DNA from: a phage
Strand: one strand, 5' to 3'
DNA length: 64,000 nucleotides
NCBI GenBank assembly: GCA_024682255.1
Contig: GCA_024682255.1_4716.1
Shown piece by piece: positions 3,092-59,723 of this stretch. The position numbers and the translations under genes are program-made. How positions within the stretch are numbered: position 1 is the stretch's first letter; each line of letters begins with the position of its first letter. Under the pieces are notes generated by a model that saw nothing but the letters and a program-made list of their open reading frames with translations, was not told the origin of the DNA and searched no databases.

Positions 3092-4888
3092 TCAATCGAT
3101 TATGTCGTGATCGTTAATTTCTACAATTTCTTCATCGAATCGACCGACGTCTTTCTTCAAGCCTGCATTGGTTGCTGCAACGTCATTTGCGATTTGTGGG
3201 GTAATGATTAACCGACCGCGTTCGTCGATAGGTGCGTACATACTGAACTTCTGACGTCCGGTTGGTTCGGAGTGTGGAAGATTCAGATAGCTTGCGCAGA
3301 ACGGGATGGAACCACTAACCAAACGACTCTCGTCAGCCAATGCAGCACCGCCTGCGTTTTGGCTCTGGAGAACAACATGCGTGCTCACTTTGAACAGCAT
3401 GCAATCACCAGGTGACTGAATCGATGTTGCCACTTTCTCACGTTTATCACGATTGCTCTGGATATTGAGAATCGCTTCCGTTGCAACTTGATTTCGCAAC
3501 GCTTTCTGTACATCGCGATTGGTCATCTCTTTACGGTTGTTCTGTCGTTTACCACGTTCTGTGGTTTTAAGATGGAACCCCAGTTTAAAGATGCTCTTAC
3601 GCACATCCTCCATGACATATTCCAACACCATCAATTCCTTACCGAACATCGTCGTGGTATCAACACGACTCATTTCGATAGTAACATTGTCGATCAGATA
3701 CGCCATAAATTCGTAGAAGTCGTCGCAAGGAATATTTTCCTGTTTGAACTTCTTCTGCTGAATCTCGTCAACGTAAAGATCGAGACTGTCGATGTGGTGG
3801 TTTACATCACGCAACAAACGCGCATCCGCATTGTTGTTATTAAAGATAATCAAACCGAGTAATGTACGCCAATGGTCTGGCGCATTCGCGAACTCTTCAA
3901 CCGGATAATCTTCCGGAAAACGATCGTAATAACGGTCGATGAGATACAAGAATGCACCGACAAGGCCAAGAACAATACGTTCCGTGCCTCCGCGTCTTAC
4001 AGCAATTTGAATATCAGGATGTTTGTAACGTACAGCGCTAGCGCTACGACTTTTACCGCTTTTGCTGATACTAAAGCCTTTAGGAATAACCCCCATGGTG
4101 CGATAGATTACCCATTGGTCACGCGGAAAATCGCGTTCAGCAAGGTTCCGTCCGGTTACGGCTTCGACACCCGCAAAACGTCGGAAACACTCACCCACCC
4201 CATACTTCGCAAAGAGATAGTGACCCAGTGTGGTTACGCTGGTGTGGTTGATGTTGTCACCGTTCACTTTACTTTGTTTGGTAAGATGATAGATTTGCGA
4301 CCAGGGTAATGACAGGTAATGACGATAATCGATACCGGTCGGTGTATCATTGCTCAGGAACTGATACGGTGTACGTTTAACCGTGATTTTGTCACGCGGA
4401 AGCATGATGAATGCCATGTCTTTCGTGTAACTGATTACAGGGTCAGCGAGCACCGCGCTGAGAATGAAGTTCGCACCACGTAGACGCATTTTACCACCCT
4501 GACCTACCGCGGGTAATAGGAGAGGATGTCGGATAATGCAGTAGTCCTTTCCGGGTTCACGACGGTCACCTGATTCCATCGCGCCGTACCAGCGGAATTC
4601 TAGCATCACCATAAACACATCGGAAGGCGCAAGGTCGAAGGTCAGCTTACCGCTATCCTTCCCTTTGGTTTTCTTTCCTCCGCTTAAGTAGTGGAACTGT
4701 TCGCGGGCCATACAGCGACGCAGGCCATGATACACCAGATCCTTAGGTAAACTATCTTTGCTGTTCCGCCAAAGACGATCAACATAGGACTCAACATCTT
4801 GCATCTTATCGACGACGATGTTGCGTGCTATCTTCTCGTTCATCTTCGGTGCAAGCTCAGCGACAGCTTTGCAGAATCTAGGATCCAT
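3092..4888 (-). CDS. hypothetical protein (598 aa)
   Basis: The ORF track starts at a GTG at 4891; the adjacent ATG at 4886-4888 with AAAGGAG five nt upstream is the more likely start. Confidence 0.8.
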   Translation of the reverse strand: MDPRFCKAVAELAPKMNEKIARNIVVDKMQDVESYVDRLWRNSKDSLPKDLVYHGLRRCMAREQFHYLSGGKKTKGKDSGKLTFDLAPSDVFMVMLEFRWYGAMESGDRREPGKDYCIIRHPLLLPAVGQGGKMRLRGANFILSAVLADPVISYTKDMAFIMLPRDKITVKRTPYQFLSNDTPTGIDYRHYLSLPWSQIYHLTKQSKVNGDNINHTSVTTLGHYLFAKYGVGECFRRFAGVEAVTGRNLAERDFPRDQWVIYRTMGVIPKGFSISKSGKSRSASAVRYKHPDIQIAVRRGGTERIVLGLVGAFLYLIDRYYDRFPEDYPVEEFANAPDHWRTLLGLIIFNNNNADARLLRDVNHHIDSLDLYVDEIQQKKFKQENIPCDDFYEFMAYLIDNVTIEMSRVDTTTMFGKELMVLEYVMEDVRKSIFKLGFHLKTTERGKRQNNRKEMTNRDVQKALRNQVATEAILNIQSNRDKREKVATSIQSPGDCMLFKVSTHVVLQSQNAGGAALADESRLVSGSIPFCASYLNLPHSEPTGRQKFSMYAPIDERGRLIITPQIANDVAATNAGLKKDVGRFDEEIVEINDHDIID

Positions 4889-4927
4889 CACACACTCCTT
4901 TCAGAAAGTTGCTTAAGCAGATTAAAG

Positions 4928-14687: not shown

Positions 14688-14717
14688 CACCTAGGTAATG
14701 TAGTCGCGAAATAAACT
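14688..14717 (-). promoter_or_regulatory. Conserved leader motif CCTAGGTAATGTAGTCG[C/T]GAAATAAACTG, copy 2 of 3
   Basis: Near-identical to 53449-53473 and partly to 6515-6529; in each case it lies between an upstream hairpin and the next minus-strand start codon. Confidence 0.45.
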
Positions 14718-14735
14718 GGATTAGACAGCATAGAA

Positions 14736-14767
14736 CCCTCTCCCAACCCGTAAGGGAAGGGAGAGGG
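14736..14767 (-). terminator. Hairpin of the dispersed family (core type ccctctccc aacccgtaa gggaagggagaggg)
   Basis: A 12-bp stem with a symmetric AA/AA internal loop and a four-nucleotide loop, sitting between the stop at 14774 and the next gene; catag precedes it on the plus strand. Confidence 0.6.
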
Positions 14768-14773
14768 AATATA

Positions 14774-15407: not shown

Positions 15408-15422
15408 ACGTACTCACTACAG

Positions 15423-40600: not shown

Positions 40601-41262
40601 TCCGCGCCATCGTTGCCAGACGGCTGTAAAGCAAGTGCTTGCTCAAGGATTTTGCGGTCAACGGCATAAAGCGCCGACAGAGCTTGCGTTACCGCAACCA
40701 GATCAACAATCGGTGACCAGAGCTGTGCGAGCTTACCTTCGTATTTCTGTACAGCGATAGCAAGGTCTTCTTTTACGTCTGGATGATCGATCAAACCACC
40801 CAACGTTTCATGGATGGCAGAAAAACGTTCAGAATGTGCCTGAGTCAATGCGGTAAAATCGTCAACGTAAGACGCATTTTCTTCAAGGCGTGTAAGTTCC
40901 TGCTCCAGAAGATCTTTTACCTGCGTGGTAGAGGCGTTTCTCAACTGTTCCCCGATAATCGCGATGGCTTTATCGACAACACGGCAGGCTTCATTGAAAC
41001 CGGTTGTTGAAGGTAACTCGGTCCATAATGCCAGCGGCTTACCTTCCATTGCGTCAGGAAGGGAATATGACAGCATTGTTAGTTGTTGACGTGATACCTG
41101 TTTGTCACGATGCAATGTTTCTTTCAACGCCAGAAGCTCATCAAGACCCACACTGCTAGGGATCGTGGGATGTGATACAGCGTTGATATTTTCTGTCAAT
41201 GACTCAAGAACCAATAAACCATTTTCAGCGGAAGATAACCCTGCTTTAAGGTATTTGTTCAT
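37657..41262 (-). CDS. hypothetical very large protein (1201 aa), probably virion-associated
   Basis: ATG at 41262 with GGAG upstream; predicted mostly helical. No catalytic motif recognised. Confidence 0.8.
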   Translation of the reverse strand: MNKYLKAGLSSAENGLLVLESLTENINAVSHPTIPSSVGLDELLALKETLHRDKQVSRQQLTMLSYSLPDAMEGKPLALWTELPSTTGFNEACRVVDKAIAIIGEQLRNASTTQVKDLLEQELTRLEENASYVDDFTALTQAHSERFSAIHETLGGLIDHPDVKEDLAIAVQKYEGKLAQLWSPIVDLVAVTQALSALYAVDRKILEQALALQPSGNDGADEEYNAVTAVPSTDINVLMPYFDQAGNLIPTESVAAPKEWDGKTLLTVLGTAVFASRIMRDVVNDYPETAALVKQLLERVESAQADENLDNIGYLAVIARLQNARIVYQRMLVQCVRTVLTYAEAVAELVMSVSETATAIRSEELWDKTQEEIEAADGYTRIDLVQEGFFDPILKLFDKKGPNPLLDSKASKSWKYLENIQQQIAQTYANKSWVERNIHDKPVVSKRVARALSFDDGKVRMPMIVLKEAISAMQSVQKLVEAPAQARHAKLQQLEEKALRRIKAGENQYQVAKDTLAEAKKIKPLSTIPESSYPKWLGYKYSAFFNTLMLQEPVTDELPKLNVDDVVETGKFLTNDAAKALKEFTTADVFCGTGCDTELWNYDAFGDDDELYDQFYLHSKLNETAATDVYYNYLEALVNVCSATVEWLARQTSLKALKMEGYGIYTAESAWETLRRTMEYTVNILKRLVDWLVKSWRNGSAKAAIQQAEANNSQLTRAKDALLTEGTKKRLASLHTVGIQTIAKYAEAGTIWSGAFKGVTDNLGNVAALISSEVKELSNGRELDQDKLAKIREGLALAFEKGNFDKVLLGHDGITIDNLASEIHDYREELKDQFKESTNESIDVDKLIRYNDGCRKFLQGPITDARNKVSGHELDNLLTMLNSMIRQQASSPENKGLGALKNEIVNARDLAKAAVDILGIAQWLEVRAKRYINALSTVVDKANSEAAAVSGTLKQEAFDLNEVVLSSTNYDVCSVAATSLAANRFRNSRDELRRHYNQALEAAFQVYNRAVYNRAVIGQHLLGVMPRFTGVFSNYPWTLGLDLQVSNPAALNTFCEKLSRSIELYGAGTADSITQAVALLDSTELCYAVDPNYEGESGNSSALATHMFEYRRLAKEALEPHSDFTTEEQRRGWYATFMDSSPSWEPDNTLQVVTEDVDPSLIWAFASLFCAALNAYIALKYGTDLKVYGWFSEQQNSNNVR

Positions 41263-46140: not shown

Positions 46141-47640
46141 ATGAGCGAACAAGAACGAAAACCTAAGAAGAAACTGCTCGGTATTCAATGTCGACACATC
46201 AGCTATAACGAAGCGAACGATGGCAGCAAGAACGACCTCATGATCGCAAAAGAGATCATGTTCTTTGATGATAATACGCAAGCGACGAACCTTCGCTTCT
46301 TCGAGAATTACAAACGTCCGTTTTGGGTGACGGTAGAGAGTAAACGTAAGAACAAATATAAAAAGGAAAGCGAGAAGCTCTCGCACGTACGTCGCTATGA
46401 TGTCCGTCAAAGTGAACTGGTTGAAAAGATCAGTTCGGTGCTTTATAAAAGACGTGCTGATGATAACACCCGTTTACAGCAGCTTGCACGGAGTCCATAC
46501 CTCTATGGAACGGACGTTAGCGCTAGCTGTTATTTAAAAACCCAATACAATACAAAATGGCCGGAATACGTCGATAAATTACCCGCTTCCATCGCCTGTT
46601 TCGATATCGAAACCGACGTTGTCCATGGACACGGTAAGATCGTCTGTATGTCTATTACAATGGGATACAATGCGATCCTTTGCTATACCAAGGACTTCGT
46701 TGGTCATATTCCGAATGCGATTGAGAAAACCCATGAGAAGATTCGATATTACCTGGCCGAACGTCTAAACACCAAAGAAGATCCGCACGCATTTGAAAAA
46801 TATCAGTACGATGTGCGAATCGTAGAAAGTCCGGCACAAGCGGTCATCCAATGCATGCAGAAGGTTCACGAATGGCAGCCGGATTATCTCCTTGGCTGGA
46901 ATATCGCGTTCGATATTCCGCGCATGCTCCAGGCACTGAACGAAGAAGGGTATCGTCCCGAGGATGTTTTCTCCGATCCCCGTGTACCACCTAAGTATCG
47001 TATTGCTCGCTGGGTACCACCGAAGACCGACAAGGTATCTGCTTCAGGGCGTAAAACCAACCTTACCCTTGAGCAAACCTGGCCGATGTTTTATACGATG
47101 GCTACGTATCAGGTTATGGATGCGATGTGTGGTTATAAGTTCGTTCGTTTAGGAAGACCGGATGAGGGACGTTATTCACTCGATGCGGTATTAGAGCGAA
47201 ATAAATGCCATACGAAATTAAAAGCAATTCCTGGTACAGAAGGGTTCACAGAGCTTGCGTGGCACGAAGAGATGCAAACGAACCATCAAATCGACTACGG
47301 TGTATATAACCTTTGGGATAACCAAGGCATCGAGGCGTTGGACCAGAAAACAAAAGACTATTCGATGACCATCCCTATCCGTTTAGCGGCGTCGGATTTG
47401 AAAGATTTCAGTTCTAACCCTAAACGTATCTGCGATAAACTTTTCTTCGTTTATCTTAACCGTGGGGAAGTCATGGGCTGCACTGCCGACGACATGACCC
47501 AGGAAGAAGATAAGTGGGTTATCTCACGAACCGGACATATCGTCACATTGCCGTGCGATCTCATGGCGGACAACGGCATCCATCTCTTCTGGGATATGCC
47601 GAACCTGAGAAGTTATATTAGATTATTTGTTGCGGATTAA
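46141..47640 (+). CDS. DNA polymerase N-terminal/3'-5' exonuclease domain protein (499 aa as annotated; the C-terminus may be spliced)
   Basis: ATG at 46141. Exo I ACFDIETD, Exo II GWNIAFDIP and Exo III YGVYNLWD are present at family-B-like spacing. No polymerase motifs A, B or C are present, consistent with a split polymerase. Confidence 0.6.
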   Translation: MSEQERKPKKKLLGIQCRHISYNEANDGSKNDLMIAKEIMFFDDNTQATNLRFFENYKRPFWVTVESKRKNKYKKESEKLSHVRRYDVRQSELVEKISSVLYKRRADDNTRLQQLARSPYLYGTDVSASCYLKTQYNTKWPEYVDKLPASIACFDIETDVVHGHGKIVCMSITMGYNAILCYTKDFVGHIPNAIEKTHEKIRYYLAERLNTKEDPHAFEKYQYDVRIVESPAQAVIQCMQKVHEWQPDYLLGWNIAFDIPRMLQALNEEGYRPEDVFSDPRVPPKYRIARWVPPKTDKVSASGRKTNLTLEQTWPMFYTMATYQVMDAMCGYKFVRLGRPDEGRYSLDAVLERNKCHTKLKAIPGTEGFTELAWHEEMQTNHQIDYGVYNLWDNQGIEALDQKTKDYSMTIPIRLAASDLKDFSSNPKRICDKLFFVYLNRGEVMGCTADDMTQEEDKWVISRTGHIVTLPCDLMADNGIHLFWDMPNLRSYIRLFVAD

Positions 47641-47707
47641 GAAATAAATCGGTTAAGTTTTACCTCCTTTCTCGATAAGTATGATACTAAGCGAGCAAGG
47701 AGTTGAT

Positions 47708-48814
47708 ATGTCGAGTAGTTATGAGTATCCAAAGATTACTGAATGTGTTGTTTCCGAAGAAGGTATCTTCGACCTCGATATGAAGCCGTTACCACTTACC
47801 GTGGAAGATGGAATATCGTACGTCAAACTTGACTGGTACCGTGGTCCCGGTCTGTATGACGCAGGTCTTGTGGTAATGCGTAAACTGCATGCTATCAACA
47901 TATACGAAGATCTGTTAGACGAAGCACATTCGTTGTATATCGATGGGAACCCAGAAAACATCAAACGTGAGAACTTGCTTTATCGTTTCAAGAACGGTAA
48001 GTTGGAACACAAGGGTTATCCGGGCTATTACTACGTCCCTTTCTTTACACACTACGTGATAAACGAGCAAGGCGAAGTGATCAGTCTTTTAACCGGGCAA
48101 AAGAAATCATGGACACGGTCGAAAGGGGATCCGAAACGAAATAAGCGTGCTGGGTACTTATATCAGCGCGTCGTTAATGATAATGGTTTCACAGCCCAAA
48201 TGTTTCAACATCGTGCGATGGGTTACGTGTTCCTGGAATACGGTGCCGACGTGATGACAAAGATCATCAACCACATAAACGGCATCAAATGGGATAATCG
48301 TCCATGCAACATTGAATGGACAACCTATTCTGAGAACAACAAGCATGCGATTGATAGCGGTCTTCGTACAGAAGGCTTACATCCTGTTAAGGTTAAGGAT
48401 TACAACACCGGTGAGGTTAGGGTATTCCCAACAATCGCTGCGTGCTGTGCTGCTTATCCATGCTTGGAACGTAAACGTGTTTGGTATTGGATGACGCGTA
48501 AAACGAAATTCATGCCAGCCTGCAATCTGTATTTCAAAGAAGTCGATGATGATACTCCGTGGCCAGATTGGCAAATCGGACAGCACCGTCGTCTTCAGGA
48601 ATACGATATGGGCCACCCTATCGCAGCTATCGATAAGCAAACCGGTAAACGTTATGTGTTTGCATCAATTGCTCACGCACAACGAGAGACGGGTGTTTCT
48701 AACGTGACTATCACGAAGTACTGTCGTAATAGACTTACAGAAGGTCGTTCTCCATTCATCTTCCGCTATTTTGAAGATGTTAGTTCGATGCCTGTAGGCC
48801 TTAACGACGCTTAA
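47708..48814 (+). CDS. HNH homing endonuclease
   Basis: ATG at 47708 with AAGGAG seven nt upstream (an alternative ATG at 47681 exists). HNH motif INHINGIKWDNRPCNIEWTTYSENNKHA and a C-terminal helix-turn-helix-like segment GKRYVFASIAHAQRETGVSNVTITKYC typical of phage homing endonucleases. Confidence 0.8.
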   Translation: MSSSYEYPKITECVVSEEGIFDLDMKPLPLTVEDGISYVKLDWYRGPGLYDAGLVVMRKLHAINIYEDLLDEAHSLYIDGNPENIKRENLLYRFKNGKLEHKGYPGYYYVPFFTHYVINEQGEVISLLTGQKKSWTRSKGDPKRNKRAGYLYQRVVNDNGFTAQMFQHRAMGYVFLEYGADVMTKIINHINGIKWDNRPCNIEWTTYSENNKHAIDSGLRTEGLHPVKVKDYNTGEVRVFPTIAACCAAYPCLERKRVWYWMTRKTKFMPACNLYFKEVDDDTPWPDWQIGQHRRLQEYDMGHPIAAIDKQTGKRYVFASIAHAQRETGVSNVTITKYCRNRLTEGRSPFIFRYFEDVSSMPVGLNDA

Positions 48815-48899
48815 CCGATTTTAGGTCCCGGTGGGGATAACGCCCCCACCGGATTCCCGTTAATTGCTGGAACCCCCTAAAGCCTTTCGACCACAGCGG

Positions 48900-49200
48900 A
48901 TTCTGAAAAGAAAAACGCGATGGTTAGAAAACAGAAAGGATGTTCGTAAGGAAGCGATAAATGGGCAATCAGCAGCGAAGCTTCTAAGGGCGTGCGTTAG
49001 CAATAAGACCTAAGAAGAACGTTCAACGACTATCCGGTCGCGCGGAGTAAGGGACAAGCGTCCCCAAACACGGGAGGGGTGCGAAAGCATTCCATGATAT
49101 AGTCTGCTCCTAAGTGAAAGCTTAGGCGGGTGGCACACACCGGCATAAGAGTTGCGTCTTATGTGGACAATGGCTTGACATCTCCTCGTCCTACCCGAAT
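48900..49200 (+). ncRNA. putative group I intron catalytic core (boundaries approximate)
   Basis: Non-coding, GC-rich stretch after the endonuclease gene. P7-like pairing GACUA (49028-49032) with UAGUC (49100-49104), a candidate P8 hairpin gggac-aagc-gtccc (49051-49064) between them, and a P9-like hairpin cctaag-tgaaag-cttagg (49109-49126) directly after, in the canonical order. Confidence 0.45.
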
Positions 49201-49475
49201 GGGCAGATCCTGTTGAATCTATCCAGAGCATGTGTTTTTCGTGAGCTCTCACGCATTGAGGGCGTCTCTGACTATCAATTCAGGAAGTTAGGTATCAACT
49301 TTATTACCGGAGGTAAAACGAACGCTGTAGACTTCTGTAGAATCGTTTATAAAGCACCGTCGATGTTTGAACTTTTAGAACATTTCGATGCGACGCGTCC
49401 AAAAGAGGAAGCACGGACCATCGAATGAATCAAGTATGTTGATCCTCGTTTAACAAAAAAGAAAACGCATGCGAA

Positions 49476-49514: not shown

Positions 49515-50000
49515 TTATGTGTGTTCGTTGCCAACTTTCACTTTGTAATCAGCATCGGTTAAGAAAATAGACAGGAATCCATGTTCTTTGCAAATCTGAC
49601 TAAGGATGTCAGCAATGATTTCGTTGATCATCGGTTTGTTTGCAAGGGCATAGATGTACCCGGGTGTAAAAGAAAGTGCATGATTGATCATAGGCTCATG
49701 AGAAGCCAAGATAAGGATCACGTGATGCTTCCCATCGTCGGTAACGACCGCTTGCGTAGACACGAAGAAATCAGTGAAGCAGCAGCGATCACAGGCTTTA
49801 GGTATATACAAATCACCCAGAGCTTCGTCACGTGCTTTTACGTGTGTTTCAGGGGTAATGCTGCTAAGTTGATCTTCAGCGAGATCCAAGACATCCTCAA
49901 TCGTTTTAAGAATAGCGTTGCGGAAATCCTCGCGGTAGAATGGGATGATATCACGATCGTTCATGTAATCGCCGGATTCGATAGTAAAGTTGATGTTCAT
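49515..50000 (-). CDS. hypothetical small protein (161 aa), member 1 of a nine-gene array
   Basis: ATG at 50000 with AGGAG upstream. Confidence 0.75.
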   Translation of the reverse strand: MNINFTIESGDYMNDRDIIPFYREDFRNAILKTIEDVLDLAEDQLSSITPETHVKARDEALGDLYIPKACDRCCFTDFFVSTQAVVTDDGKHHVILILASHEPMINHALSFTPGYIYALANKPMINEIIADILSQICKEHGFLSIFLTDADYKVKVGNEHT

Positions 50001-50050
50001 TGAATGCTCCTAGTGGTTATGTCGATTGATTGATGTATTGATTTATGTTT

Positions 50051-50069
50051 GAAGGTGTTGTTCACCTTC
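50051..50069 (-). terminator. Hairpin gaaggtg-ttgtt-caccttc adjacent to a stop codon
   Basis: 7-bp stem immediately after the stop at 50071; part of the exact 25-nt repeat also found at 26344-26368. Confidence 0.5.
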
Positions 50070-50070
50070 G

Positions 50071-50511
50071 TTAGATATCATCATCCGTGGTGCCGTAGGA
50101 CATATGCTGAATTAATTTTCTCGGCTCGATGAAAATACGACATGTGATAAACACATCGGGATCGTATTGCTCCACGCAACGTCCGAAGGCTTGTTTTGCG
50201 GCTTGACGCACCGATGTTATTTCCTGATCGTTCATCGCATTATCGAATTCGATGTTGATCGTGATTTTATCGGGAAATAAATAGATAAAGTAATCGCCAC
50301 TGATACCACCATCATCAAAGTGACGTTCATTGTAACACTGGACGAGCTTACCTTCACGTTCTTTCTGATACCATCCAAGGATACTATTAAGACCTCTGTC
50401 CACGCATTCGAATGCTTGAGTAATAACATCCTCAACGACGGAGGCTGCCGTGGGACCATTGAATAGACGATCTAAGCGCTTTTTCATCGATTTGTCGGTT
50501 TTCATGTTCAT
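50071..50511 (-). CDS. hypothetical small protein (about 146 aa), array member 2
   Basis: The track's start at 50538 abuts the hairpin at 50543-50573 with no ribosome-binding site; the internal ATG at 50511 (MNMKTDK) with AGGAAAAG upstream is preferred. Start is uncertain. Confidence 0.6.
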   Translation of the reverse strand: MNMKTDKSMKKRLDRLFNGPTAASVVEDVITQAFECVDRGLNSILGWYQKEREGKLVQCYNERHFDDGGISGDYFIYLFPDKITINIEFDNAMNDQEITSVRQAAKQAFGRCVEQYDPDVFITCRIFIEPRKLIQHMSYGTTDDDI

Positions 50512-50542
50512 TGTTTCTTTTCCTGTTATAGTCAACATATAG

Positions 50543-50573
50543 CCCTTCCCCGGCCTTGACGGCTAGGGAAGGG
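50543..50573 (-). terminator. Hairpin of the dispersed family (cccttccc variant)
   Basis: cccttccc...gggaaggg arms; catatag precedes it on the plus strand. Confidence 0.5.
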
Positions 50574-50588
50574 TATGTTTACGTATAT

Positions 50589-50984
50589 TTACTCTTTGAC
50601 GTCAGTTGTCGTTTCGACATGCTTCTCACTACTGACGTACCAGAGCAGGTACGCTGGGAAAAGATTGACCTCTAAGCTAAATGGGATATTGTATTTCTCT
50701 TCCATTTTACAGAGATGTTCTTTAAGTAAATTTCTCGCGTCTCTGTCACCACGAACAGAGTGCCAGTCTAGTTCTTTGTTCTCCTTTACCAGGACCTCTA
50801 CGATGATACGTTGCTCGTGAACCTCGGTTTTCACAGTGAAAAGTAAATCGCTGCTATCAAAACGGGTAAAACGAATGTATGAACCTGGTGTTTTTTCTTG
50901 TTTAATAATATCGATCATGGTAGAAATGCGCGGATGATCGATGTTGTCGTTAACAGCTTTAACGATGGATTCTACAATGCTCAT
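50589..50984 (-). CDS. hypothetical small protein (131 aa), array member 3
   Basis: ATG at 50984 with AAGGAT upstream; AT-rich region upstream. Confidence 0.75.
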   Translation of the reverse strand: MSIVESIVKAVNDNIDHPRISTMIDIIKQEKTPGSYIRFTRFDSSDLLFTVKTEVHEQRIIVEVLVKENKELDWHSVRGDRDARNLLKEHLCKMEEKYNIPFSLEVNLFPAYLLWYVSSEKHVETTTDVKE

Positions 50985-51141
50985 TTTTTATCCTTAATGT
51001 TATCGATTTAGAAATATTACTTAATTACTGTTTTATTTATCGATGGTTGTTACCCATGATGGGAAAGCCGGATGGAAACAGAGCGTGAACGTAACCTTCG
51101 TATCGTATTTAATCGCTGAACTTTATCTTTGATAGACATGA

Positions 51142-51600
51142 TTACCCCTTAGCTCCTTCTTCGTCTGGAGAGTATTCCATCGTGTAGAATTCATAACCAT
51201 CGGAAAACTTGAGTGTTAATGTAATAGGGAAATCGCACGGCATAGCTGATTTCGTAAATGCGTTATTAGCAACATCAGCCAACCGACGTATAGCATCGGT
51301 CCCGCTGACGCTGAACGGTAGTTGTATGTTGATAAGGATACGACGCTTGTAAACATAGAAAACAACGGTACTGTCGAGATAAACGCTATGGAACGGTATT
51401 GTTGGGATGCGTTCCACAATGGTAAAATACGTCCCGTCATTATCGCTATGCCCCATCGACCAAATATCGGATTTGCGTAGATTTTGTTTGAGGGATTCGA
51501 TACTTCGAGTGACGGTCTCAGCAACAGGCGTGACGTAAGTGTCTCTATGCGAGTCGAAAAGTTCGTTGACGTTAGATTCGAATGAATACATTGTTGCCAT
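51142..51600 (-). CDS. hypothetical small protein (152 aa), array member 4
   Basis: ATG at 51600 with GAGGTAG upstream. Confidence 0.75.
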   Translation of the reverse strand: MATMYSFESNVNELFDSHRDTYVTPVAETVTRSIESLKQNLRKSDIWSMGHSDNDGTYFTIVERIPTIPFHSVYLDSTVVFYVYKRRILINIQLPFSVSGTDAIRRLADVANNAFTKSAMPCDFPITLTLKFSDGYEFYTMEYSPDEEGAKG

Positions 51601-51626
51601 TTTCTACCTCAATAGTTTAACCGGCA

Positions 51627-51652
51627 CGTGTCCCCACCTAACAAGGGACACG
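51627..51652 (-). terminator. Hairpin cgtgtccc-loop-gggacacg
   Basis: 8-bp stem between array members. Confidence 0.45.
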
Positions 51653-51666
51653 ATATCATCGATTAA

Positions 51667-52161
51667 TTACTCTTCTGTGTTTTCATTGTCAGGATCGTAG
51701 TGGAATTCGAACAGCCCTGAACCGTCGTGCCCGTTGATTGTTAGTATAACGGGCATATCGAATCCTCGGACGCGCGAATGAAAACACTGTGCTAATTTGA
51801 GTTTGGCGTATGCCACTATTTCATTGACGGCAATGCACGACTCACCTGTTATACTCAGTATAACGTCGATACTAACAATGTTGTCGTGCAACGCAAAACG
51901 CCAGCGATCGATACGATTATTATCTTTAGCAGGTGTCTCGTTTACGAGATAGACTTTATCGTCAACCGACAAAGCGGGACTCCAGCAACGTTCGTTTATT
52001 AAATTCGCCTGGAGTTTTAGTATCGTCTGATCAATAATATCCCAACACGCAACCAGCGTGGCGTCAGACACTGAATTGAGAAGGGTGAGTACTTTATCCT
52101 TTATTTTAAGTGCTTCCGCAGGACGCCCGCAAATACCATGCATTTCAACTTTCTTATTCAT
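51667..52161 (-). CDS. hypothetical small protein (about 164 aa), array member 5
   Basis: The track's start at 52167 is GTG; the ATG at 52159-52161 is used. Confidence 0.65.
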   Translation of the reverse strand: MNKKVEMHGICGRPAEALKIKDKVLTLLNSVSDATLVACWDIIDQTILKLQANLINERCWSPALSVDDKVYLVNETPAKDNNRIDRWRFALHDNIVSIDVILSITGESCIAVNEIVAYAKLKLAQCFHSRVRGFDMPVILTINGHDGSGLFEFHYDPDNENTEE

Positions 52162-52206
52162 ATTCACTTCTTTCTTAATCTAAATGTTAGTTGGGGGATG
52201 GGATGC

Positions 52207-52809
52207 TTACATGCTTTCTAGCATATTGACGATCATGGAACCCATACCGAAACTCGGTCTCTCACCGATATACTCAGCAAGTTGACGGTGTACGTCTTTT
52301 GGATTTCCTTCTTCACCGTCAGCATCGATGTAGACCGAAAAAGAAACCGAATCGGAATCCACGCTGATAACCAGACGACGTTCATTGCGTTCCTTGAGCG
52401 TGTCGACGATAGATGCTTTCAGTACCGGGATCGCATTCATCGCGTGCAAGATATCTCCATCAGGTCTCGCCAGATCGATCTTTTCTTTCAGGTCGATATT
52501 GATGTTGGTTACAATTGGGTTGAGGTCGACCTTGACATAATCGTTGGGATACATGCGAATAATCGCACGATCGATATCTGAACCGTAAAAGTCAACACGT
52601 GGCTTTAACACCTCTTTGTTTGGATCCATGTTTTCATCCATACCCGCCTGCAAGAAACGTTCTACGTTATCCAGTTCACGATAAACTGACGCTTCGATTT
52701 CTTTCAGATAGTTGGCTGCGGTTTCATGTTCTTTACGTAGCTCGTCTTTAAGGAGCTGTACGGTGGTTTCACTGGAACGAATGCTGTTCGCGAATTGGGT
52801 AATTGACAT
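52207..52809 (-). CDS. hypothetical small protein (about 200 aa), array member 6
   Basis: The track's start at 52839 is TTG; the ATG at 52807-52809 (MSITQF) with AAGGAA upstream is used. Confidence 0.65.
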   Translation of the reverse strand: MSITQFANSIRSSETTVQLLKDELRKEHETAANYLKEIEASVYRELDNVERFLQAGMDENMDPNKEVLKPRVDFYGSDIDRAIIRMYPNDYVKVDLNPIVTNINIDLKEKIDLARPDGDILHAMNAIPVLKASIVDTLKERNERRLVISVDSDSVSFSVYIDADGEEGNPKDVHRQLAEYIGERPSFGMGSMIVNMLESM

Positions 52810-52863
52810 ATCGAATTCCTTAAATTCTCTTGAGTTCAATTGATGATGAAAAGCTGTAAAAAA

Positions 52864-52881
52864 GGTGGGGCGAACCCCACC
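52864..52881 (-). terminator. Classic intrinsic terminator
   Basis: On the minus strand: GGUGGGG-UUCG-CCCCACC followed by UUUUUU, directly after the stop at 52907. Confidence 0.7.
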
Positions 52882-52906
52882 AAAACGTCAGACACACGCA
52901 GGAAAA

Positions 52907-53332
52907 TTAATTCAGTGACGCATATAAGGCATAACGACTGTAGATTTCAACCGCCGGTCCGTTATGCGTTAACAGACCATCCCGGTTGTAATACTGGAAA
53001 AATGAATAACGTTTGTCGAAGTGATAAACAAAAGCAATGTCTTTGCCGTCAAAACCTGTGATGCGTGGTCTGTTTTTATCTAGCAATGCTTTAACTTTTA
53101 ACAGTGTTGCCGCACGTGCTTTAACGTTAGGGATCAAGCCATCACAATCGATATAAACAGTGTAACCTGTTTCAGATGTTGCGACGGTCGTATTGCGATT
53201 GACGCGGAAGATTTTTGTTTCGTATGTACTATCTTCAAGAATTGGGTTTTGTTTTTCGTATTTTCGTTTACGCAGAAATTCTACAACGGTGATATAGTTA
53301 GCGGTAATATGCCCGGTTATAGCTTGTAACAT
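52907..53332 (-). CDS. hypothetical small protein (141 aa), array member 7
   Basis: ATG at 53332 with AAAGGATG upstream. Confidence 0.75.
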   Translation of the reverse strand: MLQAITGHITANYITVVEFLRKRKYEKQNPILEDSTYETKIFRVNRNTTVATSETGYTVYIDCDGLIPNVKARAATLLKVKALLDKNRPRITGFDGKDIAFVYHFDKRYSFFQYYNRDGLLTHNGPAVEIYSRYALYASLN

Positions 53333-53448
53333 CTCGACATCCTTTTATATTGGATTGATTGCAATTGTCTTAAATAGATGATAAGATATTTTGCTCTTAT
53401 CACTAAGGTAACGCTTACGCGTCGCGTTCATGATGCATGGCATCATGA

Positions 53449-53473
53449 AGGTAATGTAGTCGTGAAATAAACT
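53449..53473 (-). promoter_or_regulatory. Conserved leader motif, copy 3 of 3, with adjacent inverted repeat
   Basis: aggtaatgtagtcgtgaaataaact matches 14692-14716 at 20 of 21 positions; an inverted repeat ttcatgatg-catgg-catcatgaa lies at 53427-53449. Confidence 0.45.
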
Positions 53474-53504
53474 GCGTTAACACGAAATAAAAAACAGCAT
53501 AGAA

Positions 53505-53536
53505 CCCTCTCCCAACCCGTAAGGGAAGGGAGAGGG
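53505..53536 (-). terminator. Hairpin of the dispersed family (core type)
   Basis: Identical core to 14736-14767 and 60673-60704; an A-run and catag precede it on the plus strand. Confidence 0.6.
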
Positions 53537-53549
53537 AATATTAAAATTG

Positions 53550-54005
53550 TCACTTTATATTGAACGCTTTTCGCAACGCATTAAGAACTAAATTAATTTC
53601 TTGCGCTTGTAACTTTAATCCCTGTGCTGAGCCATCAAACCCAAGCCAACGCCATACAAGGCATTTTACAGGTTTGTTGCTATCGTCGATACTATATGTG
53701 ATCTCCAGTGTACTTTGATACGCGTAGTCACCATGTGTTTTCAGTGACTGATTGAAATAAATATCAAATGCTTCTTCTATAGCCTGTTTACCGCGATCGT
53801 TACAAACAAACGCGATGTATCCGTCGGAATATCCAACTTCCTCTGGATGTCCTTGGCAGGAGAAAATACTGATGGCGTCTTGCTGAGCAAGATTGAACAC
53901 CGTGAAGAAATCACCAAATAAAGGATCGAGATTTAATGCGTTGTTATCGATAAGGTTCCTTACCGCTTTACGGTATTCTCCCAGACTATTGTTCGCTGTA
54001 AACAT
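53550..54005 (-). CDS. hypothetical small protein (151 aa), array member 8
   Basis: ATG at 54005 with AAAGGTAA upstream. Confidence 0.75.
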   Translation of the reverse strand: MFTANNSLGEYRKAVRNLIDNNALNLDPLFGDFFTVFNLAQQDAISIFSCQGHPEEVGYSDGYIAFVCNDRGKQAIEEAFDIYFNQSLKTHGDYAYQSTLEITYSIDDSNKPVKCLVWRWLGFDGSAQGLKLQAQEINLVLNALRKAFNIK

Positions 54006-54015
54006 TCTTTTACCT

Positions 54016-54417
54016 TTAAATATCGTGGATAGCGGTGCCGTTTAGCCAACAATACAACTTAATGCGACACGGATAGCGATTCGTAGCCAAGAGCAGTTCA
54101 TCGCGTAAACGCTGGTAGATTTCATCCTGGTGTTCGCGATCAATGGGGTAATCGGCCCAACATTCGATCATGACGTCACCATTCGTCAGAATCGTCGTAC
54201 GCATCCTGTCCTGGATACGGCGGTCTTTCCCGGCATTAGGGAAATACATTCCTTCGGTACGAATAAGGTCGCCGCAGGGCATGACTAACCATTCGTTCGT
54301 TTTGCCGGTATTCTTATAATCCATTACAGCTTGCATTGCGGTGTCAACGCTAAAAGAAACATAATTCCAAACGGATGTCCAACGATAGATTGCGGGTTGT
54401 TCGAGTGTTTCGTTCAT
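54016..54417 (-). CDS. hypothetical small protein (133 aa), array member 9
   Basis: ATG at 54417. Confidence 0.7.
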   Translation of the reverse strand: MNETLEQPAIYRWTSVWNYVSFSVDTAMQAVMDYKNTGKTNEWLVMPCGDLIRTEGMYFPNAGKDRRIQDRMRTTILTNGDVMIECWADYPIDREHQDEIYQRLRDELLLATNRYPCRIKLYCWLNGTAIHDI

Positions 54418-54471
54418 GGAGTGCTTGTCCTATTTTTATTTTCTGCACAGGATAAATTCAACGGCATAAAG

Positions 54472-54510
54472 CCCTTCCCTGCCCTTATATGGGGCGGGAA
54501 GAGTTTATGA
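54472..54510 (-). terminator. Hairpin of the dispersed family (cccttccc variant with longer loop)
   Basis: cccttccctgccc-ttatat-ggggcgggaagag; cataa precedes it on the plus strand. Confidence 0.5.
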
Positions 54511-54631
54511 CCGCAATGAGAATCTCTCACGACAAGCTCACGACGATTATCGCATCACCCCGCGAGTGAGGGAGATCAGGATCACCTCCTACGTCGTAAC
54601 GACAGTAATCCCGTTAACGCCACCTTAGGCA

Positions 54632-55258
54632 TTATGCAAAGCGACGCATGTAACCTGCCAGATAGTTACGCGTATCGAAGTAAGCAATTTCAGGAATTGC
54701 GATGTTAAGGTCGATAGCGCGGATTTCAACTTGGCGACGGCTTTCATCATAGATCGCATCCATCAGACGCAGTACTGTCAGGAAAGCCATGCGGGTATGG
54801 TAGTCCAGCGGCATGTTGTCGATACCGCGATACAGATAACGGTTTGCGTTAAATGCCCCTTCGCTGTTATCTTTCCAGATCTTCAGAATATCAGCAAAGG
54901 CGGTGCGGAAAACCTCAGGATTATCCACATCCAGTAACGCACGGAAGGCAGACATTAAAGACCGCTGATGGCGGATCAACGACTGCGGCGTTTGCGGCAT
55001 GGTTGGACCCATTTCTTCCGCATATTTCTGGAACGGGGCAACCAGGGTTGCGGCACGAGAAGCCACGATAGAAACAGCAGGCGATTCTTTCACCGCTGGT
55101 TTCGCAGGCTTTTCTTCAACAACGGTTTCCTTCTTCTCAACAGCGACCGTTTCCGGCTGTGCTACAACATCACTAACCGGAGCATCTGCAACGGTGGTTT
55201 CTACCGCAGTAATCTCCTCGTCCATTTTTGCAGAACGTTGGTCTTTATTCTTGCTCAT
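54632..55258 (-). CDS. hypothetical protein (208 aa) with Ala/Glu/Val/Pro-rich N-terminal region
   Basis: ATG at 55258 with AAAGGAAA upstream. Confidence 0.75.
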   Translation of the reverse strand: MSKNKDQRSAKMDEEITAVETTVADAPVSDVVAQPETVAVEKKETVVEEKPAKPAVKESPAVSIVASRAATLVAPFQKYAEEMGPTMPQTPQSLIRHQRSLMSAFRALLDVDNPEVFRTAFADILKIWKDNSEGAFNANRYLYRGIDNMPLDYHTRMAFLTVLRLMDAIYDESRRQVEIRAIDLNIAIPEIAYFDTRNYLAGYMRRFA

Positions 55259-55283
55259 GTTTATTTCCTTTTGTTTAACAAGG

Positions 55284-56585
55284 TTAACTAATATAAAGTT
55301 CAGGATCGTAAGGCGCTAACGATACACTGGCGTTATGCATTGCTTTCATCATAGTGTTCATGAAAACGTTGTTTACACCGGTGATCTCTGCCCCGATCGC
55401 ATCTGGGGTTGGAGCCATCGCGTTACCGCAACAGGTAGCACAGTATTCCAATGGGCCTGCTTTACAACGTTGAGGATCACGTAACTTGATGGTCTGTCCT
55501 TCCAAGGAAGCGAGTAATTCAGCATCAATAAGTTTAAGCGCCGCGCCGTCGATCATGTAACGGCCGACAAGCAGCTTATCTTTGATGTGGTCGCGGTTTA
55601 CCGTGAACAGAATATGTTCGTGGGTACCACAGTCGTCCATCGTGATTTTAAGGTTCTGTGTCGCACGTTGCGATTCTTTCGCCGTCTGTCCAGCTAAAGC
55701 GGTCAACGCACCACGTGAGAACGAACCAGCACGTGCGCTGTTGTTGTACTCCGCCCAATGGTCGACACGCATCCCTTCAGCCAGGCTGTGTGTGATAACG
55801 TTACGTTTACCGGGGTCAACGAAGTCGGCTTCAACCCCCATCATGATGTGCGTTTTCTTTCGAGTATTACCGAAACTCTTGCCTGGGTTAATATAGAACC
55901 CTTCCGATTCATCGCCCTTAAAGGATTCCTTATCCATTTTGGTTAGCGTGGCTTCGAGTTTGATCAGTTCTTCAGGCGTGAACTTACCTTCCTCTTGTAA
56001 GCGTGCTAACTCTTTATCGCGATAGGCAATAATATCATCATCGACCGTTAACGCTTTATCGCTCATCGATGGGACAATTAAACGGTTGATAGCGGTTAAC
56101 GCACTGATATTGTTGGTGAATTTCTTCACTTCGCTTGCGTACAGCGGGCCAATAGGACGTTCGTTAGGATCGGGTATTCCCTCTTCGGGATCGTCAGCTA
56201 CGCGTGGCGCAATCAGTGACTCCAGTGTGCCGCTGGTCAACCGTCCTGCCTGGTATTCAATCTGAATACCGAAAGCATCATAAAGGACGTACATATTGAA
56301 CAGAGCTTCGCCGAAGGTTGTGGTGGTTGTGTTCTTAACCGACGGTAGATCGCCAGGTGCGAGCTCCAATGGCTCCCAGAAACTCAACAAGGGTTTTGTT
56401 GGCTCGGTTTCCCATTGGTGTTCTTCACCGTCGATGGTAACCGTAACGACGTTACCTTGACGACGTAATTTAGGCTGATACTTCTCAGCGCCGCCTTCCG
56501 TAAAAGCAAATGCGTCGTTAATCCATTCAAGATAACGGTAGTGCCCTTCACGCATCGCGTAAAGGAAATATTCACGAGGTGTCAT
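55284..56585 (-). CDS. multisubunit RNA polymerase beta-prime subunit, C-terminal fragment (bridge helix and trigger-loop region)
   Basis: ATG at 56585 with AAAGGAG upstream. The translation contains TMDDCGTHEHILF (bacterial beta-prime EDDCGTHEG), a preceding bridge-helix-like SRGALTALAGQTAKESQRATQNL, and a downstream CATCCG / AIGAEITG segment paralleling CAHCYG / GEAIGVIAAQSIGEPGTQ. The NADFDGD catalytic motif is absent, so the subunit is split. Confidence 0.8.
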   Translation of the reverse strand: MTPREYFLYAMREGHYRYLEWINDAFAFTEGGAEKYQPKLRRQGNVVTVTIDGEEHQWETEPTKPLLSFWEPLELAPGDLPSVKNTTTTTFGEALFNMYVLYDAFGIQIEYQAGRLTSGTLESLIAPRVADDPEEGIPDPNERPIGPLYASEVKKFTNNISALTAINRLIVPSMSDKALTVDDDIIAYRDKELARLQEEGKFTPEELIKLEATLTKMDKESFKGDESEGFYINPGKSFGNTRKKTHIMMGVEADFVDPGKRNVITHSLAEGMRVDHWAEYNNSARAGSFSRGALTALAGQTAKESQRATQNLKITMDDCGTHEHILFTVNRDHIKDKLLVGRYMIDGAALKLIDAELLASLEGQTIKLRDPQRCKAGPLEYCATCCGNAMAPTPDAIGAEITGVNNVFMNTMMKAMHNASVSLAPYDPELYIS

Positions 56586-56598
56586 GTAACAACTCCTT

Positions 56599-57471
56599 TT
56601 AAACCCGGGTCAGGTCACCGTGACGTGAAACGAACTCTGATAACGCTCGGGTTGCTTCTTTGGATTCTTCAGCCATCGGGAAGTTTGCGGTAATAAGTTC
56701 TCGTAAGACAGGGACGAGTTCGTTATCTTCGAGATCAGAAGCTAAAGCGAATGCAATCAGTTCTTGGGTGTATGCATACGGTTGCTGACGTAATGCAGTA
56801 AGCTGATCCCGACACTGCGACATTAGCAGGTCCAGTGGAACCGCTATCGTACCCCCTTCATCAATATACTGGCTGAACACCGGTGGGAACGCATCGCTGA
56901 TGACACGAATACGTCGACGAATATGATCCGGAATCTGGACGTTTTCTTCGTCGACGACGTTTTCGCTATCTTTCTCCAGCTTCTTGGTCAGTACCTGTTG
57001 AATGCGTGGGAGTAAGCTTGAATGTACGAAACCGATTAATGGGGTTACATTCGCAGCATCGACGCCGTAAATGTGACGCGTACATTCTGCTAACGCTTCA
57101 GCTGCGGTGTAGTCTTCATCTTCAACGATAGCAAGTAGAAAAGCGGTATCGTCGTGTGTTTCCAGGTCTAATAACGTAGACGCTAGCGCATGAAGATATT
57201 TCAGGCTATCCAGCGATAGCTGTCCTTCGTTAATTCGGATCCCGAAGGCAAGCAATTGTTGTTTATAAAGTTCGATACATCCGTTTGTTAAAATGATGTC
57301 TAATTCGTTTAAATCGTATTGTTCCCCAGCACCTGACAACATCGTACTGCAGAACGTTTCCAGTTGTTCACATTTAAAATCTTGGTATAAACGATGCGTG
57401 CAGTGCTGTAACAGCGTACGCCTTGTTTCAGGGATCTTACCTTCTAACAAAGCCAAGACGGAATCAATCAT
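56599..57471 (-). CDS. hypothetical protein (about 290 aa)
   Basis: The track's start at 57477 is GTG; the ATG at 57469-57471 with GGAG upstream is used. Confidence 0.7.
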   Translation of the reverse strand: MIDSVLALLEGKIPETRRTLLQHCTHRLYQDFKCEQLETFCSTMLSGAGEQYDLNELDIILTNGCIELYKQQLLAFGIRINEGQLSLDSLKYLHALASTLLDLETHDDTAFLLAIVEDEDYTAAEALAECTRHIYGVDAANVTPLIGFVHSSLLPRIQQVLTKKLEKDSENVVDEENVQIPDHIRRRIRVISDAFPPVFSQYIDEGGTIAVPLDLLMSQCRDQLTALRQQPYAYTQELIAFALASDLEDNELVPVLRELITANFPMAEESKEATRALSEFVSRHGDLTRV

Positions 57472-57567
57472 ATCCACTCCGATGCGGTAAATGTCTACTA
57501 GCTCTCATAATCTATTGAAGAAACTACCAGCTTACGCCAACTTAGATTAATCAGGAGTAACCATCCC

Positions 57568-58041
57568 ATGCCAGTTTCATCCAAACCAAGAAAAAAATCC
57601 GTAGGAAACCCTAAAGCTCAGGAAACAACAGCAATTCGTTGGGACGAGTTACGTGAACCTATCGAAAACTGCGAATTGTTATTAGGTACCCTGGGTGCGG
57701 CTATTTACCAAGCGACGCAGCCCTGTCGTTTACGATTAACCCAAAACAAACGTGATGAGTTCGTTGCGTTATCAACAAGCACGAATAAAGATCTGACCGA
57801 ACTTCAAACCGAATTGACGACGATCAAGAACTCCATTACGCCGATGTACGGTAAAGAAGTTGATGAACAAAGTATTCTGTTACAGTACAACTACGGGATG
57901 TCGTTAATGAACATCCTGGAACGCGCATCCGATATTCTGCGTCCTGACGTTGCACGCCTGAGCCAACTGCGTGTTGAAGGGATGGAGAACCAGATCCGAT
58001 TCGCTAACAGCGTTAAATCTCAAGGAGCCACCGAAGCATGA
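57568..58041 (+). CDS. hypothetical protein (157 aa)
   Basis: ATG at 57568; divergent from the gene at 56599-57471; the stop overlaps the next start (ATGA). Confidence 0.7.
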   Translation: MPVSSKPRKKSVGNPKAQETTAIRWDELREPIENCELLLGTLGAAIYQATQPCRLRLTQNKRDEFVALSTSTNKDLTELQTELTTIKNSITPMYGKEVDEQSILLQYNYGMSLMNILERASDILRPDVARLSQLRVEGMENQIRFANSVKSQGATEA

Positions 58042-59723
58042 GCGAACAAGAAAAAGAAGTCGTGACGAATCAGGAAGCCGTTGAGCGTTCAGAGTCGTCT
58101 GTTGAAACAACGATTCCGGCAAGTTCCGAGCCTGTTGGTTCCGTACAGCAGGAAAGTAAAGACGAAGTCAACACTACTAAAGAAGATGTAGTGGCTCCAG
58201 AAGCAACCCGTGAAGAAGAACCGTCACATCCACCGCTAATCGATTTCTCGAAGGCGACGATACGTTTCCAATGCGAAGACATTCGTCCTAAGAGTCCGAA
58301 GAAAACAAAACGTCAGCCGTTGGTGTTACCGTTATATTCTCCGCGTGTGCAGACAACGTATTACCGGGAATACATCAACGAAGCAATGGATACCGTGCAA
58401 GCCATTGTCGCTCAACGCGGTAAACCGACAGACGAACAGTTTGATAAATTCAGTAAAGCGGTGGTGCAATCGGTTGCTGATGGACAATATCATCCGCGTG
58501 GTCCAGCTCACGATCGCGCGTTGGAACGTAAAGGCAGTCAGTGGACTAACGTACCCGTAGACTCATCGGGTGTTGGTCGCGTTATTCCTGGCATTCCGCA
58601 ACCGAACCATATTCCTGATGATGTCGAAGCGCCGCTGACAGGAACCGATGCGATCTATTTTGCTATCCGTAATACGAAATCAGGCGCACCTGCGGTAATG
58701 CCGTTATGGCATAGCGGTATTAAGCTGCAGTTCAATCCGCCGTCAAATGAACGTGTTGCAATTATGCACGAACGTATTGCACGCGATAAAATCCTGGGTG
58801 GTCGTGATAGCACCGGTTTCCTGTTTTCGGCAACCTCGATTATCACCATGAAGCACGCAATCGAATTAGCGTTAGAATGCTGTTACATGGCCAACGTACC
58901 GAACCTGGATATCCAGCGTTTGAAAGACATTATTCCGGTTACCGATGTTCCGGCGTTGTTGTTGAACGTGCTGGTAACCATGTATCCGTACGGGTATCCT
59001 TACGTACAGACCTGCTATCAGAATCCAGAAACCTGCGACTATCGTGTCGAAGATACCGTAAGCTTTGCGAAGCTCTATCAAGTTGACAACAGCGCAATTA
59101 CCAAACGTATGCGACAGATCATGACCGAAGGTCCGGTCATGACAGATGAACTTTTGCGTGAGTATGCGAACGAGCTGGGTGAAACGAACTCCCGTACGCT
59201 GGATCTGTCCGACAACGGTTCTGTTATCATTGAACTCGAAGTACCGAAGATCTCACGACAAATCGCCATGGGTGAACGTTGGTTAAGCGATACGCTGGAA
59301 GATCTGCGTGATATTCTATCGCGTCCGTCGATGACCGAAGAAGAGCGTGATCGTGTTATTCGTGAACGTCAGTTCTATAGCTGGATGCGTCAGTATGATG
59401 CGTGGATCAAATCGATGCATGTGTCGGTAAACGGTACCATGCGTCGTGTAAGCGATGCAGATACGGCAACGGTATTAGCACAGCTGTCTCGTGACAGCGA
59501 CCTTCGTGAACGCTATATCGATGGGCTGATGCAATTCATCGGTGATTCGACGATTGCGCTCGCAGCGATGCCTGCCTGGAAATGTCCGAAATGTAATGCC
59601 GATATTGCTGACAATCTGCGTGACCAGAAATACTACGATCTGATTGCTTTGGATGTACCCCAGCTTTTTTTTACCCTAAACTCCGTCCAATCTCTTCAGG
59701 AGGGGATGGACGCGGTATTCTAA
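58038..59723 (+). CDS. hypothetical protein (561 aa) with C-terminal CxxC element
   Basis: ATG at 58038 with AAGGAG upstream; WKCPKCN near the C-terminus. Confidence 0.8.
   Translation: MSEQEKEVVTNQEAVERSESSVETTIPASSEPVGSVQQESKDEVNTTKEDVVAPEATREEEPSHPPLIDFSKATIRFQCEDIRPKSPKKTKRQPLVLPLYSPRVQTTYYREYINEAMDTVQAIVAQRGKPTDEQFDKFSKAVVQSVADGQYHPRGPAHDRALERKGSQWTNVPVDSSGVGRVIPGIPQPNHIPDDVEAPLTGTDAIYFAIRNTKSGAPAVMPLWHSGIKLQFNPPSNERVAIMHERIARDKILGGRDSTGFLFSATSIITMKHAIELALECCYMANVPNLDIQRLKDIIPVTDVPALLLNVLVTMYPYGYPYVQTCYQNPETCDYRVEDTVSFAKLYQVDNSAITKRMRQIMTEGPVMTDELLREYANELGETNSRTLDLSDNGSVIIELEVPKISRQIAMGERWLSDTLEDLRDILSRPSMTEEERDRVIRERQFYSWMRQYDAWIKSMHVSVNGTMRRVSDADTATVLAQLSRDSDLRERYIDGLMQFIGDSTIALAAMPAWKCPKCNADIADNLRDQKYYDLIALDVPQLFFTLNSVQSLQEGMDAVF

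Follow-up and report, generated by a model that had tools for sequence, protein, structure and literature searches.

Which part of a multisubunit RNA polymerase is encoded by the open reading frame at 55,284-56,585, and to which of the polymerases of a phiKZ-like phage does it belong? The frame lies on the minus strand of a 64,000-nucleotide stretch of phage DNA, hereafter the window. A reading made earlier from the sequence alone had taken the product for a separately encoded, C-terminal β′ fragment of the split polymerase of a phiKZ-like jumbo phage, and had held that membership of the virion or the non-virion enzyme cannot be told from sequence. The separately encoded β′ fragment and the lineage are borne out, i.e., by PHROG 2962, by a BLASTP match to phiKZ gp80 and by 95-98% nucleotide identity to Escherichia phage Goslar. 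The other two points have to be revised: there is little doubt that, in this Goslar-like and nucleus-forming jumbo phage, the protein is the middle piece of β′ (Mid-β′, β′M) in the virion RNA polymerase (vRNAP). This subunit has already been described, and the finding is real and ordinary. It names the window as DNA of a Goslar-like chimallivirus and accounts for one of the five subunits of an injected polymerase, an enzyme that starts infection independently of the host RNA polymerase (RNAP); its value is for annotation, not novelty. The point of mechanistic interest is a trigger loop that would be split between two polypeptides at an insertion site.

The gene and its neighbors

The gene and the two that flank it are as follows.

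54632..55258, minus strand: downstream gene, corresponding to the capsid decorator protein gp77 of Goslar; 25-nt gap to the next gene
55284..56585, minus strand: gene of the 433-residue protein, very probably Mid-β′ of the virion RNA polymerase; ATG-to-stop frame, 433 codons plus stop
56599..57477, minus strand: upstream gene, homolog of phiKZ gp79 and equivalent of Goslar gp079; PHROG 5038, BLASTP against gp79 E 7e-6

A ribosome-binding site, AAGGAG, falls inside the 13-nt gap between the Mid-β′ frame and the upstream gene, and with so short a gap the two genes are probably cotranscribed. In the gp79-like gene, the called GTG start precedes the one given in the Goslar annotation by 6 nt. In phiKZ, gp79 is annotated as a structural head protein, and the phiKZ arrangement of a divergent gp77 and the gp79-gp80 pair is kept around 55,284-56,585. 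Since the cryo-EM model of Goslar has gp77 as the capsid decorator, the Mid-β′ gene sits in a block of virion, or late, genes. A scan of 54,400-58,100 for σ70 promoters (4 found, 4.9 expected from shuffles) and intrinsic terminators (7 found, 4.0 expected) stayed at the level of shuffled sequence, and is uninformative because the phage uses its own polymerases.

Evidence for homology to β′

Is the protein related to β′ at all? Sequence families of phage proteins give a direct answer: PHROG 2962 ("RNA polymerase beta subunit") covers residues 1-432 on a profile of 433 positions with E 6e-106. Pfam, on the other hand, is unusable for classifying the protein, as a scan at E≤10 returned no families and, with them, no Rpb1/β′ family at its gathering threshold; homology to the cellular subunit becomes visible only through a family profile or a structure model. 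The PDB matches of a single-sequence phmmer search, namely chain 7S00_D of the AR9 non-virion RNAP and E. coli β′ 758-824, were marginal (E 3e-3), and a family profile was needed. A word-indexed search found 9 homologs only. The exhaustive HMMER search used in its place found 1,284 representatives at E≤1e-3, mostly of 415-455 aa; in 143 of the best 150 of these the length is 414-464 aa and the match runs end to end. From this set 105 sequences were taken for the family alignment and profile.

Against the PDB this profile reaches bacterial β′ chains with E down to 1.5e-10, profile positions 93-391 corresponding to about 659-985 of the actinobacterial subunit. It also matches AR9 7S00_D (E 1.5e-8) and phiKZ gp74, 7OGP_D (E 1.7e-7, positions 316-422 on residues 284-394 of 677). 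An AlphaFold2 model built from the family alignment (pLDDT 93.4, pTM 0.82) had 243 Foldseek matches in the PDB (E≤1e-3); the 50 chains listed among these are without exception β′, RpoC2 or AR9 β′C, over about 360-430 aligned columns. Identity to cellular β′ is low, ∼17% in the structural alignments and ∼17-25% overall. The likeness, as measured by PHROG 2962, the PDB profile search and Foldseek, is far beyond chance, and it extends across the whole protein, beyond any single motif. Unrelated proteins, the outcome by which the sequence-only reading could have been refuted, did not come up as best matches: profile, Foldseek and hhalign all give β′ over the bridge helix and the first trigger-loop helix.

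A few members of the family (P0012, P0026, P0058, P0069, and P0137) are longer, 544-604 aa. They bear an N-terminal extension of ∼145-155 aa without a PHROG match or, in the case of P0137, an internal insertion that matches PHROG 17560; none of the five is fused to another RNAP family.

Which part of β′ is present?

When the family was aligned with E. coli RpoC by hhalign, residues 261-417 fell on β′ 756-936 (of 1407). Together with the structure model and the family alignment, this places the following elements.

56310..56585, minus strand: N-terminal ∼92 residues, two short helices and a small β-sheet (AlphaFold2 model and family alignment)
55659..55766, minus strand: bridge helix, residues 274-309, a single 36-residue helix in the model, aligned without gaps on E. 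coli β′ 769-804
55617..55637, minus strand: DDCGTHE, residues 317-323, read from the sequence
55431..55631, minus strand: four cysteines, C319, C374, C382, and C385, a putative second β′ zinc site (hhalign and invariance)
55335..55397, minus strand: first trigger-loop helix, residues 397-417 (helix in the model and hhalign)
55287..55334, minus strand: 16-residue C-terminal tail past the trigger-loop His417, at the conserved break point of the family

The N-terminal segment is conserved in the family and lies outside the sequence-profile matches to cellular β′, which start at about profile position 93. The bridge helix, which the earlier reading had called bridge-helix-like, is confirmed, and its R291, T295, and G299 are invariant. 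The four cysteines correspond in the hhalign alignment to E. coli β′ C814, C888, C895, and C898, which are the known ligands of the second β′ zinc site, and each is present in 105/105 family sequences; zinc binding by the phage protein is thus predicted by analogy. At the end of the first trigger-loop helix, M413, K414, and H417 align with E. coli M932, R933, and H936, and the invariant H417 is the likely catalytic histidine. The complete list of invariant columns in the 105-sequence alignment is short: G250, R291, T295, G299, C319, C374, C382, C385, and H417.

Both ends of the protein are informative. The NADFDGD motif had been noted as missing, and a motif scan found none in the protein, nor any DxDGD in the six frames of the whole window. 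The protein belongs, then, to a stand-alone type of ∼430 aa, which starts after the DPBB/DFDGD domain and ends just past the first trigger-loop helix. As for the other end, the tail past H417 measures 16 aa here and 15-20 aa in 105/105 aligned members. The trigger-loop insertion domain of gp74 comprises residues 396-533, and E. coli SI3 comprises β′ 942-1129 (PMC7618050); given these positions, the 433-residue protein ends at the trigger-loop insertion site. The trigger-loop region mentioned in the earlier reading is therefore present as its first helix, while the remainder is absent: of the trigger loop the protein has one half, and the C-terminal regions of β′ are missing altogether. Indeed, regions a17-a20 were not found in it, the RpoC alignment ending at 936 of 1407 with 16 aa left.

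Could it still be the β′ C-terminal fragment, running from the bridge helix to the β′ C-terminus with a complete trigger loop? The name has a history. The protein corresponds to the more C-terminal of the two β′ pieces recognized in the early phiKZ literature, and Thomas et al. 2016 still termed its SPN3US counterpart gp42 (431 aa) the "C-terminal" subunit in one passage. The same authors, however, designate gp42 as β′M and show that what follows a16, namely a17-a20, is provided by another virion protein, gp244 (240 aa), equivalent to phiKZ gp176; in Goslar, gp210 is the candidate for this C-β′. With the E. coli alignment stopping at H936 and that of gp74 at 394 of 677, and with so little sequence past the trigger-loop histidine, a C-terminal fragment is very unlikely. 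A middle piece, by contrast, agrees with the composition given in the review of Sokolova et al. 2020, in which the jumbo-phage vRNAP consists of N-β′, Mid-β′, C-β′, N-β, and C-β, without α or ω partners.

With regard to the upstream break, residue ∼140-147 of cyanobacterial RpoC2 corresponds to Mid-β′ profile position 246. Provided that large indels are absent, the split in cyanobacteria would be located ∼100 residues further downstream than that in the phages, and from these alignments the two breaks appear to match the review's "common split site" only approximately.

Virion or non-virion enzyme?

The window is collinear with Goslar, with 95.3-97.9% nucleotide identity in long blocks, 86.6-89.4% in shorter ones, and a few insertions or replacements; it is from a Goslar-like chimallivirus (Goslarvirus lineage, Chimalliviridae). 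The 433-residue protein shares 99.8% amino acid identity with Goslar gp78 (YP_009820763.1). The identical 433-aa sequence is also found on a contig of 238 kb with 321 member sequences, and a partial protein of 285 aa (P0002), 98% identical, comes from a Salmonella enterica serovar assembly at NCBI. Phages of the Goslar type are commoner in Salmonella and Escherichia sequencing data than the two phage-database records suggest.

The comparison with phiKZ-like polymerase subunits that the sequence-only reading had recommended discriminates clearly between the two enzymes. BLASTP aligns residues 1-419 with phiKZ gp80, a virion-RNAP subunit annotated as "structural head protein", at 31% identity and E 1e-49, and detects no similarity to the non-virion gp74 (E 3.7). 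Matches to "RNA polymerase beta subunit 3" of the SPN3US type span 100% of the protein. PHROG 3015, the β′C of the non-virion RNAP (nvRNAP), matches residues 261-389 only, on positions 212-343 of a 653-position profile; full-length homology of the β′C type, with insertion domain and β′ C-terminal region, was not found, the gp74 match stopping at 394 of 677. Orthology to gp80, the lack of a gp74 match in BLASTP and the gp79-gp80 synteny make the question answerable from sequence after all, and the answer is the virion enzyme.

Virion proteomics, the other check that had been proposed, points the same way. In the Goslar preprint the vRNAP is composed of gp78, gp196, gp205, gp207, and gp210, all detected in virions, gp78 by mass spectrometry; SPN3US gp42 and phiKZ gp80 have likewise been reported in virions. 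Mass spectrometry on a phage this close confirms the virion assignment made by orthology.

Might the protein instead serve the non-virion RNAP, the enzyme that transcribes middle and late genes in the phage nucleus? Two observations speak for it: profiles show a weak similarity to gp74 and to β′C of the AR9 nvRNAP, and an ortholog of phiKZ gp123, itself a non-virion subunit, lies within the same window (3,092-4,891). Yet nvRNAP β′C proteins are 631-677 aa long and unsplit, the end-to-end match to gp80 is on the scale of E 1e-50 as against 3.7 for gp74, and the vRNAP subunits listed for Goslar and detected in its virions include gp78. A role in the non-virion enzyme is thus improbable in the extreme, slightly more so than the C-terminal fragment considered above.

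Partner subunits and the second polymerase

Where are the partners of Mid-β′ encoded? The earlier reading had placed them outside the window, and for the vRNAP itself this proved correct. The window spans roughly Goslar gp036-gp086, and gp196, gp205, gp207, and gp210 are beyond it, at about 204-212 kb and further along in Goslar. At about 204-212 kb lie gp207, a β-like protein of 1,448 aa, and gp210, which has 236 aa and belongs to PHROG 2926 ("virion structural protein"). A tblastn search of the 64-kb window with gp207 and gp210 gave no match, and one with phiKZ gp65-gp99 found no orthologs of gp68, gp71, gp73, or gp74. As RNAP subunits in the window, the PHROG family scan (26 ORFs, 24 of them among the window's 33 ORFs of at least 250 aa) and tblastn returned the 433-residue protein alone. 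The statement fails for the second polymerase, one subunit of which is encoded inside the window.

3092..4891, minus strand: ortholog of phiKZ gp123, non-virion RNAP subunit, 599 aa; matches PHIKZ123 (7OGP_E) over nearly its full length, E 5.8e-41

This gene was first seen as PHROG 2943 "polymerase" and corresponds to Goslar gp039, annotated just "polymerase". In phiKZ, GP123 is a β-like nvRNAP subunit that gives the β2 lobe (PMC7618050). The ortholog lies two genes from the major head protein, and in phiKZ gp123 is likewise near gp120.

As for C-β′, published genetics and proteomics, together with weak HHpred evidence, point to gp210 as the candidate; against PDB sequences gp210 had no match at E≤10. 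A literature search found no structure of a vRNAP.

Selection and the DDCGTHE string

How strongly is the gene constrained? Compared with Goslar, it shows 50 nucleotide differences, which amount to 48 synonymous codon differences and 1 non-synonymous, while for the adjacent gp79-like gene the respective counts are 26 and 19. This neighbor evolves much faster, and purifying constraint on the polymerase subunit is much the stronger of the two.

The sole amino acid difference falls within DDCGTHE: H322 here, Q322 in Goslar (DDCGTQE). The string is present, as had been reported, but the weight placed on it is not justified, D-C-G alone being conserved in the family (D318 in 98/105 sequences, C319 in 105/105, G320 in 90/105). 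At position 322 most members have K, T, R, or Q, and the exact heptamer occurs in the query alone among the 105 sequences. Given this variability and the glutamine of Goslar, the complete agreement with the host β′ motif is coincidental and depends on a residue that varies. A recent capture of the string from E. coli rpoC was considered and rejected on the same grounds, and for the ∼17-25% identity to β′.

That the protein is what is left of a decayed polymerase and now serves the head only, in structure or ejection and without catalysis, might be argued from the ∼17% identity to cellular β′, the lack of a Pfam match and the "structural head protein" annotation of phiKZ gp80, but this can be all but set aside, being as improbable as the non-virion assignment, since the residues invariant in 105 diverse members are precisely the bridge-helix R, T, and G, the four cysteines and the trigger-loop histidine, purifying selection is strong (48:1), and the early transcription of phiKZ-type phages, which is independent of the host RNAP, is credited in the literature to the vRNAP.

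A proposed division of the trigger loop

Taken as Mid-β′ of the vRNAP, the protein can be fitted into a simple scheme. The literature describes a vRNAP of five subunits that is packaged in the head, enters the early-infection vesicle by injection along with the DNA, and is responsible for early transcription independent of the host RNAP. In SPN3US, amber mutants of gp241 have heads that lack all vRNAP subunits. By this scheme, Mid-β′ would assemble late in infection with four subunits encoded elsewhere: C-β′, N-β, C-β, and N-β′, the last of these with the catalytic DFDGD loop. The assembled enzyme would be packed into the head, injected with the DNA, and would then transcribe the early genes without the host polymerase. 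Mid-β′ would contribute the bridge helix, a site of four cysteines that probably binds zinc, and helix 1 of the trigger loop with its catalytic histidine. Its polypeptide would end where the trigger loop has its tip, a position taken by insertion domains in other RNAPs. From this end point it follows that the rest of the trigger loop, along with the clamp and hinge region at the C-terminus, would come in trans from a separate C-β′.

Is the trigger loop of the vRNAP really cut at its tip? We consider it rather probable, with less confidence than the identity of the subunit, that helix 1 and its histidine reside on Mid-β′, that helix 2, if any, resides on the ∼236-aa C-β′, and that the loop is assembled in trans. 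Among the 105 members aligned, out of a family of >1,000 representatives, the position of the break varies by no more than about 5 residues, and it coincides with the site of the insertions in E. coli (SI3) and in the phage type's own non-virion gp74 (396-533). A break after β′ a16 is already implicit in Thomas et al. 2016. As for its origin, the split may derive from an ancestral insertion or intron at this site, or it may be an adaptation to packaging and ejection in smaller pieces.

Other features of the window

The remainder of the window holds an interrupted gene and several departures from Goslar. The family-B DNA polymerase gene (46,141-49,386, plus strand) is interrupted: phiKZ gp82 aligns at 46,144-47,646 and at 49,174-49,386. 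Between the two pieces lie an HNH/NUMOD endonuclease ORF (47,681-48,814, PHROG 59), in a segment diverged from Goslar, and a group I intron (48,801-49,126; Rfam RF00028, 68.7 bits, E 2.5e-15).

Insertions or replacements with respect to Goslar occur at 12,847-15,423, 39,293-40,963, 50,592-51,155, and 53,546-54,015. Three ORFs, of 300, 319, and 273 aa, lie in the first, which measures ∼2.3 kb. In the second, part of a 1,201-aa ORF (37,657-41,262) is replaced; the Goslar counterpart of this ORF, gp064, has 930 aa. The last two hold one extra small ORF each. A sequence of ∼100-150 bp, at 49,657-49,816 in Goslar, occurs twice here, at 14,627-14,772 and 53,442-53,545, each time adjoining an insertion point, and it may be an intergenic or regulatory element, or a recombination hotspot. 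Finally, nine small ORFs (131-210 aa) at 49,515-54,417 on the minus strand, seven in Goslar (gp070-gp076), coincide with the lowest GC content of the window (0.42 versus ∼0.47) and may form a putative fast-evolving cassette of paralogous accessory genes.

Comparison with known systems

The nearest known system is Goslar, whose gp78 has equal length, neighbors, and strand arrangement, and differs in one residue (H322 versus Q322) and 48 synonymous codons. Further away, phiKZ gp80 (449 aa) and SPN3US gp42 (431 aa) are end-to-end homologs of the 433-residue protein, with the invariant Cys and His residues in common and a gp79-like gene upstream, although the identity is only about 30% and phiKZ has MEDCNTW where the window protein has MDDCGTHE.

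The non-virion enzymes offer a different picture. phiKZ gp74 and AR9 β′C (7OGP_D and 7S00_D) share with it the β′ region that begins ahead of the bridge helix and reaches the first trigger-loop helix (Foldseek E 4e-9), but they continue for ∼280 aa, with an insertion domain and the β′ C-terminal region, whereas the window protein ends at gp74 ∼394-410.

Among cellular polymerases, the bridge helix, the four-cysteine site and the first trigger-loop helix of E. coli RpoC align residue for residue over 756-936, and the gene of cyanobacterial RpoC2 likewise begins after the catalytic DPBB domain. Compared with bacterial β′ and RpoC2, the window protein is set apart by an identity of ∼17%, by the lack of a Pfam match, and by a second break, placed inside the trigger loop.
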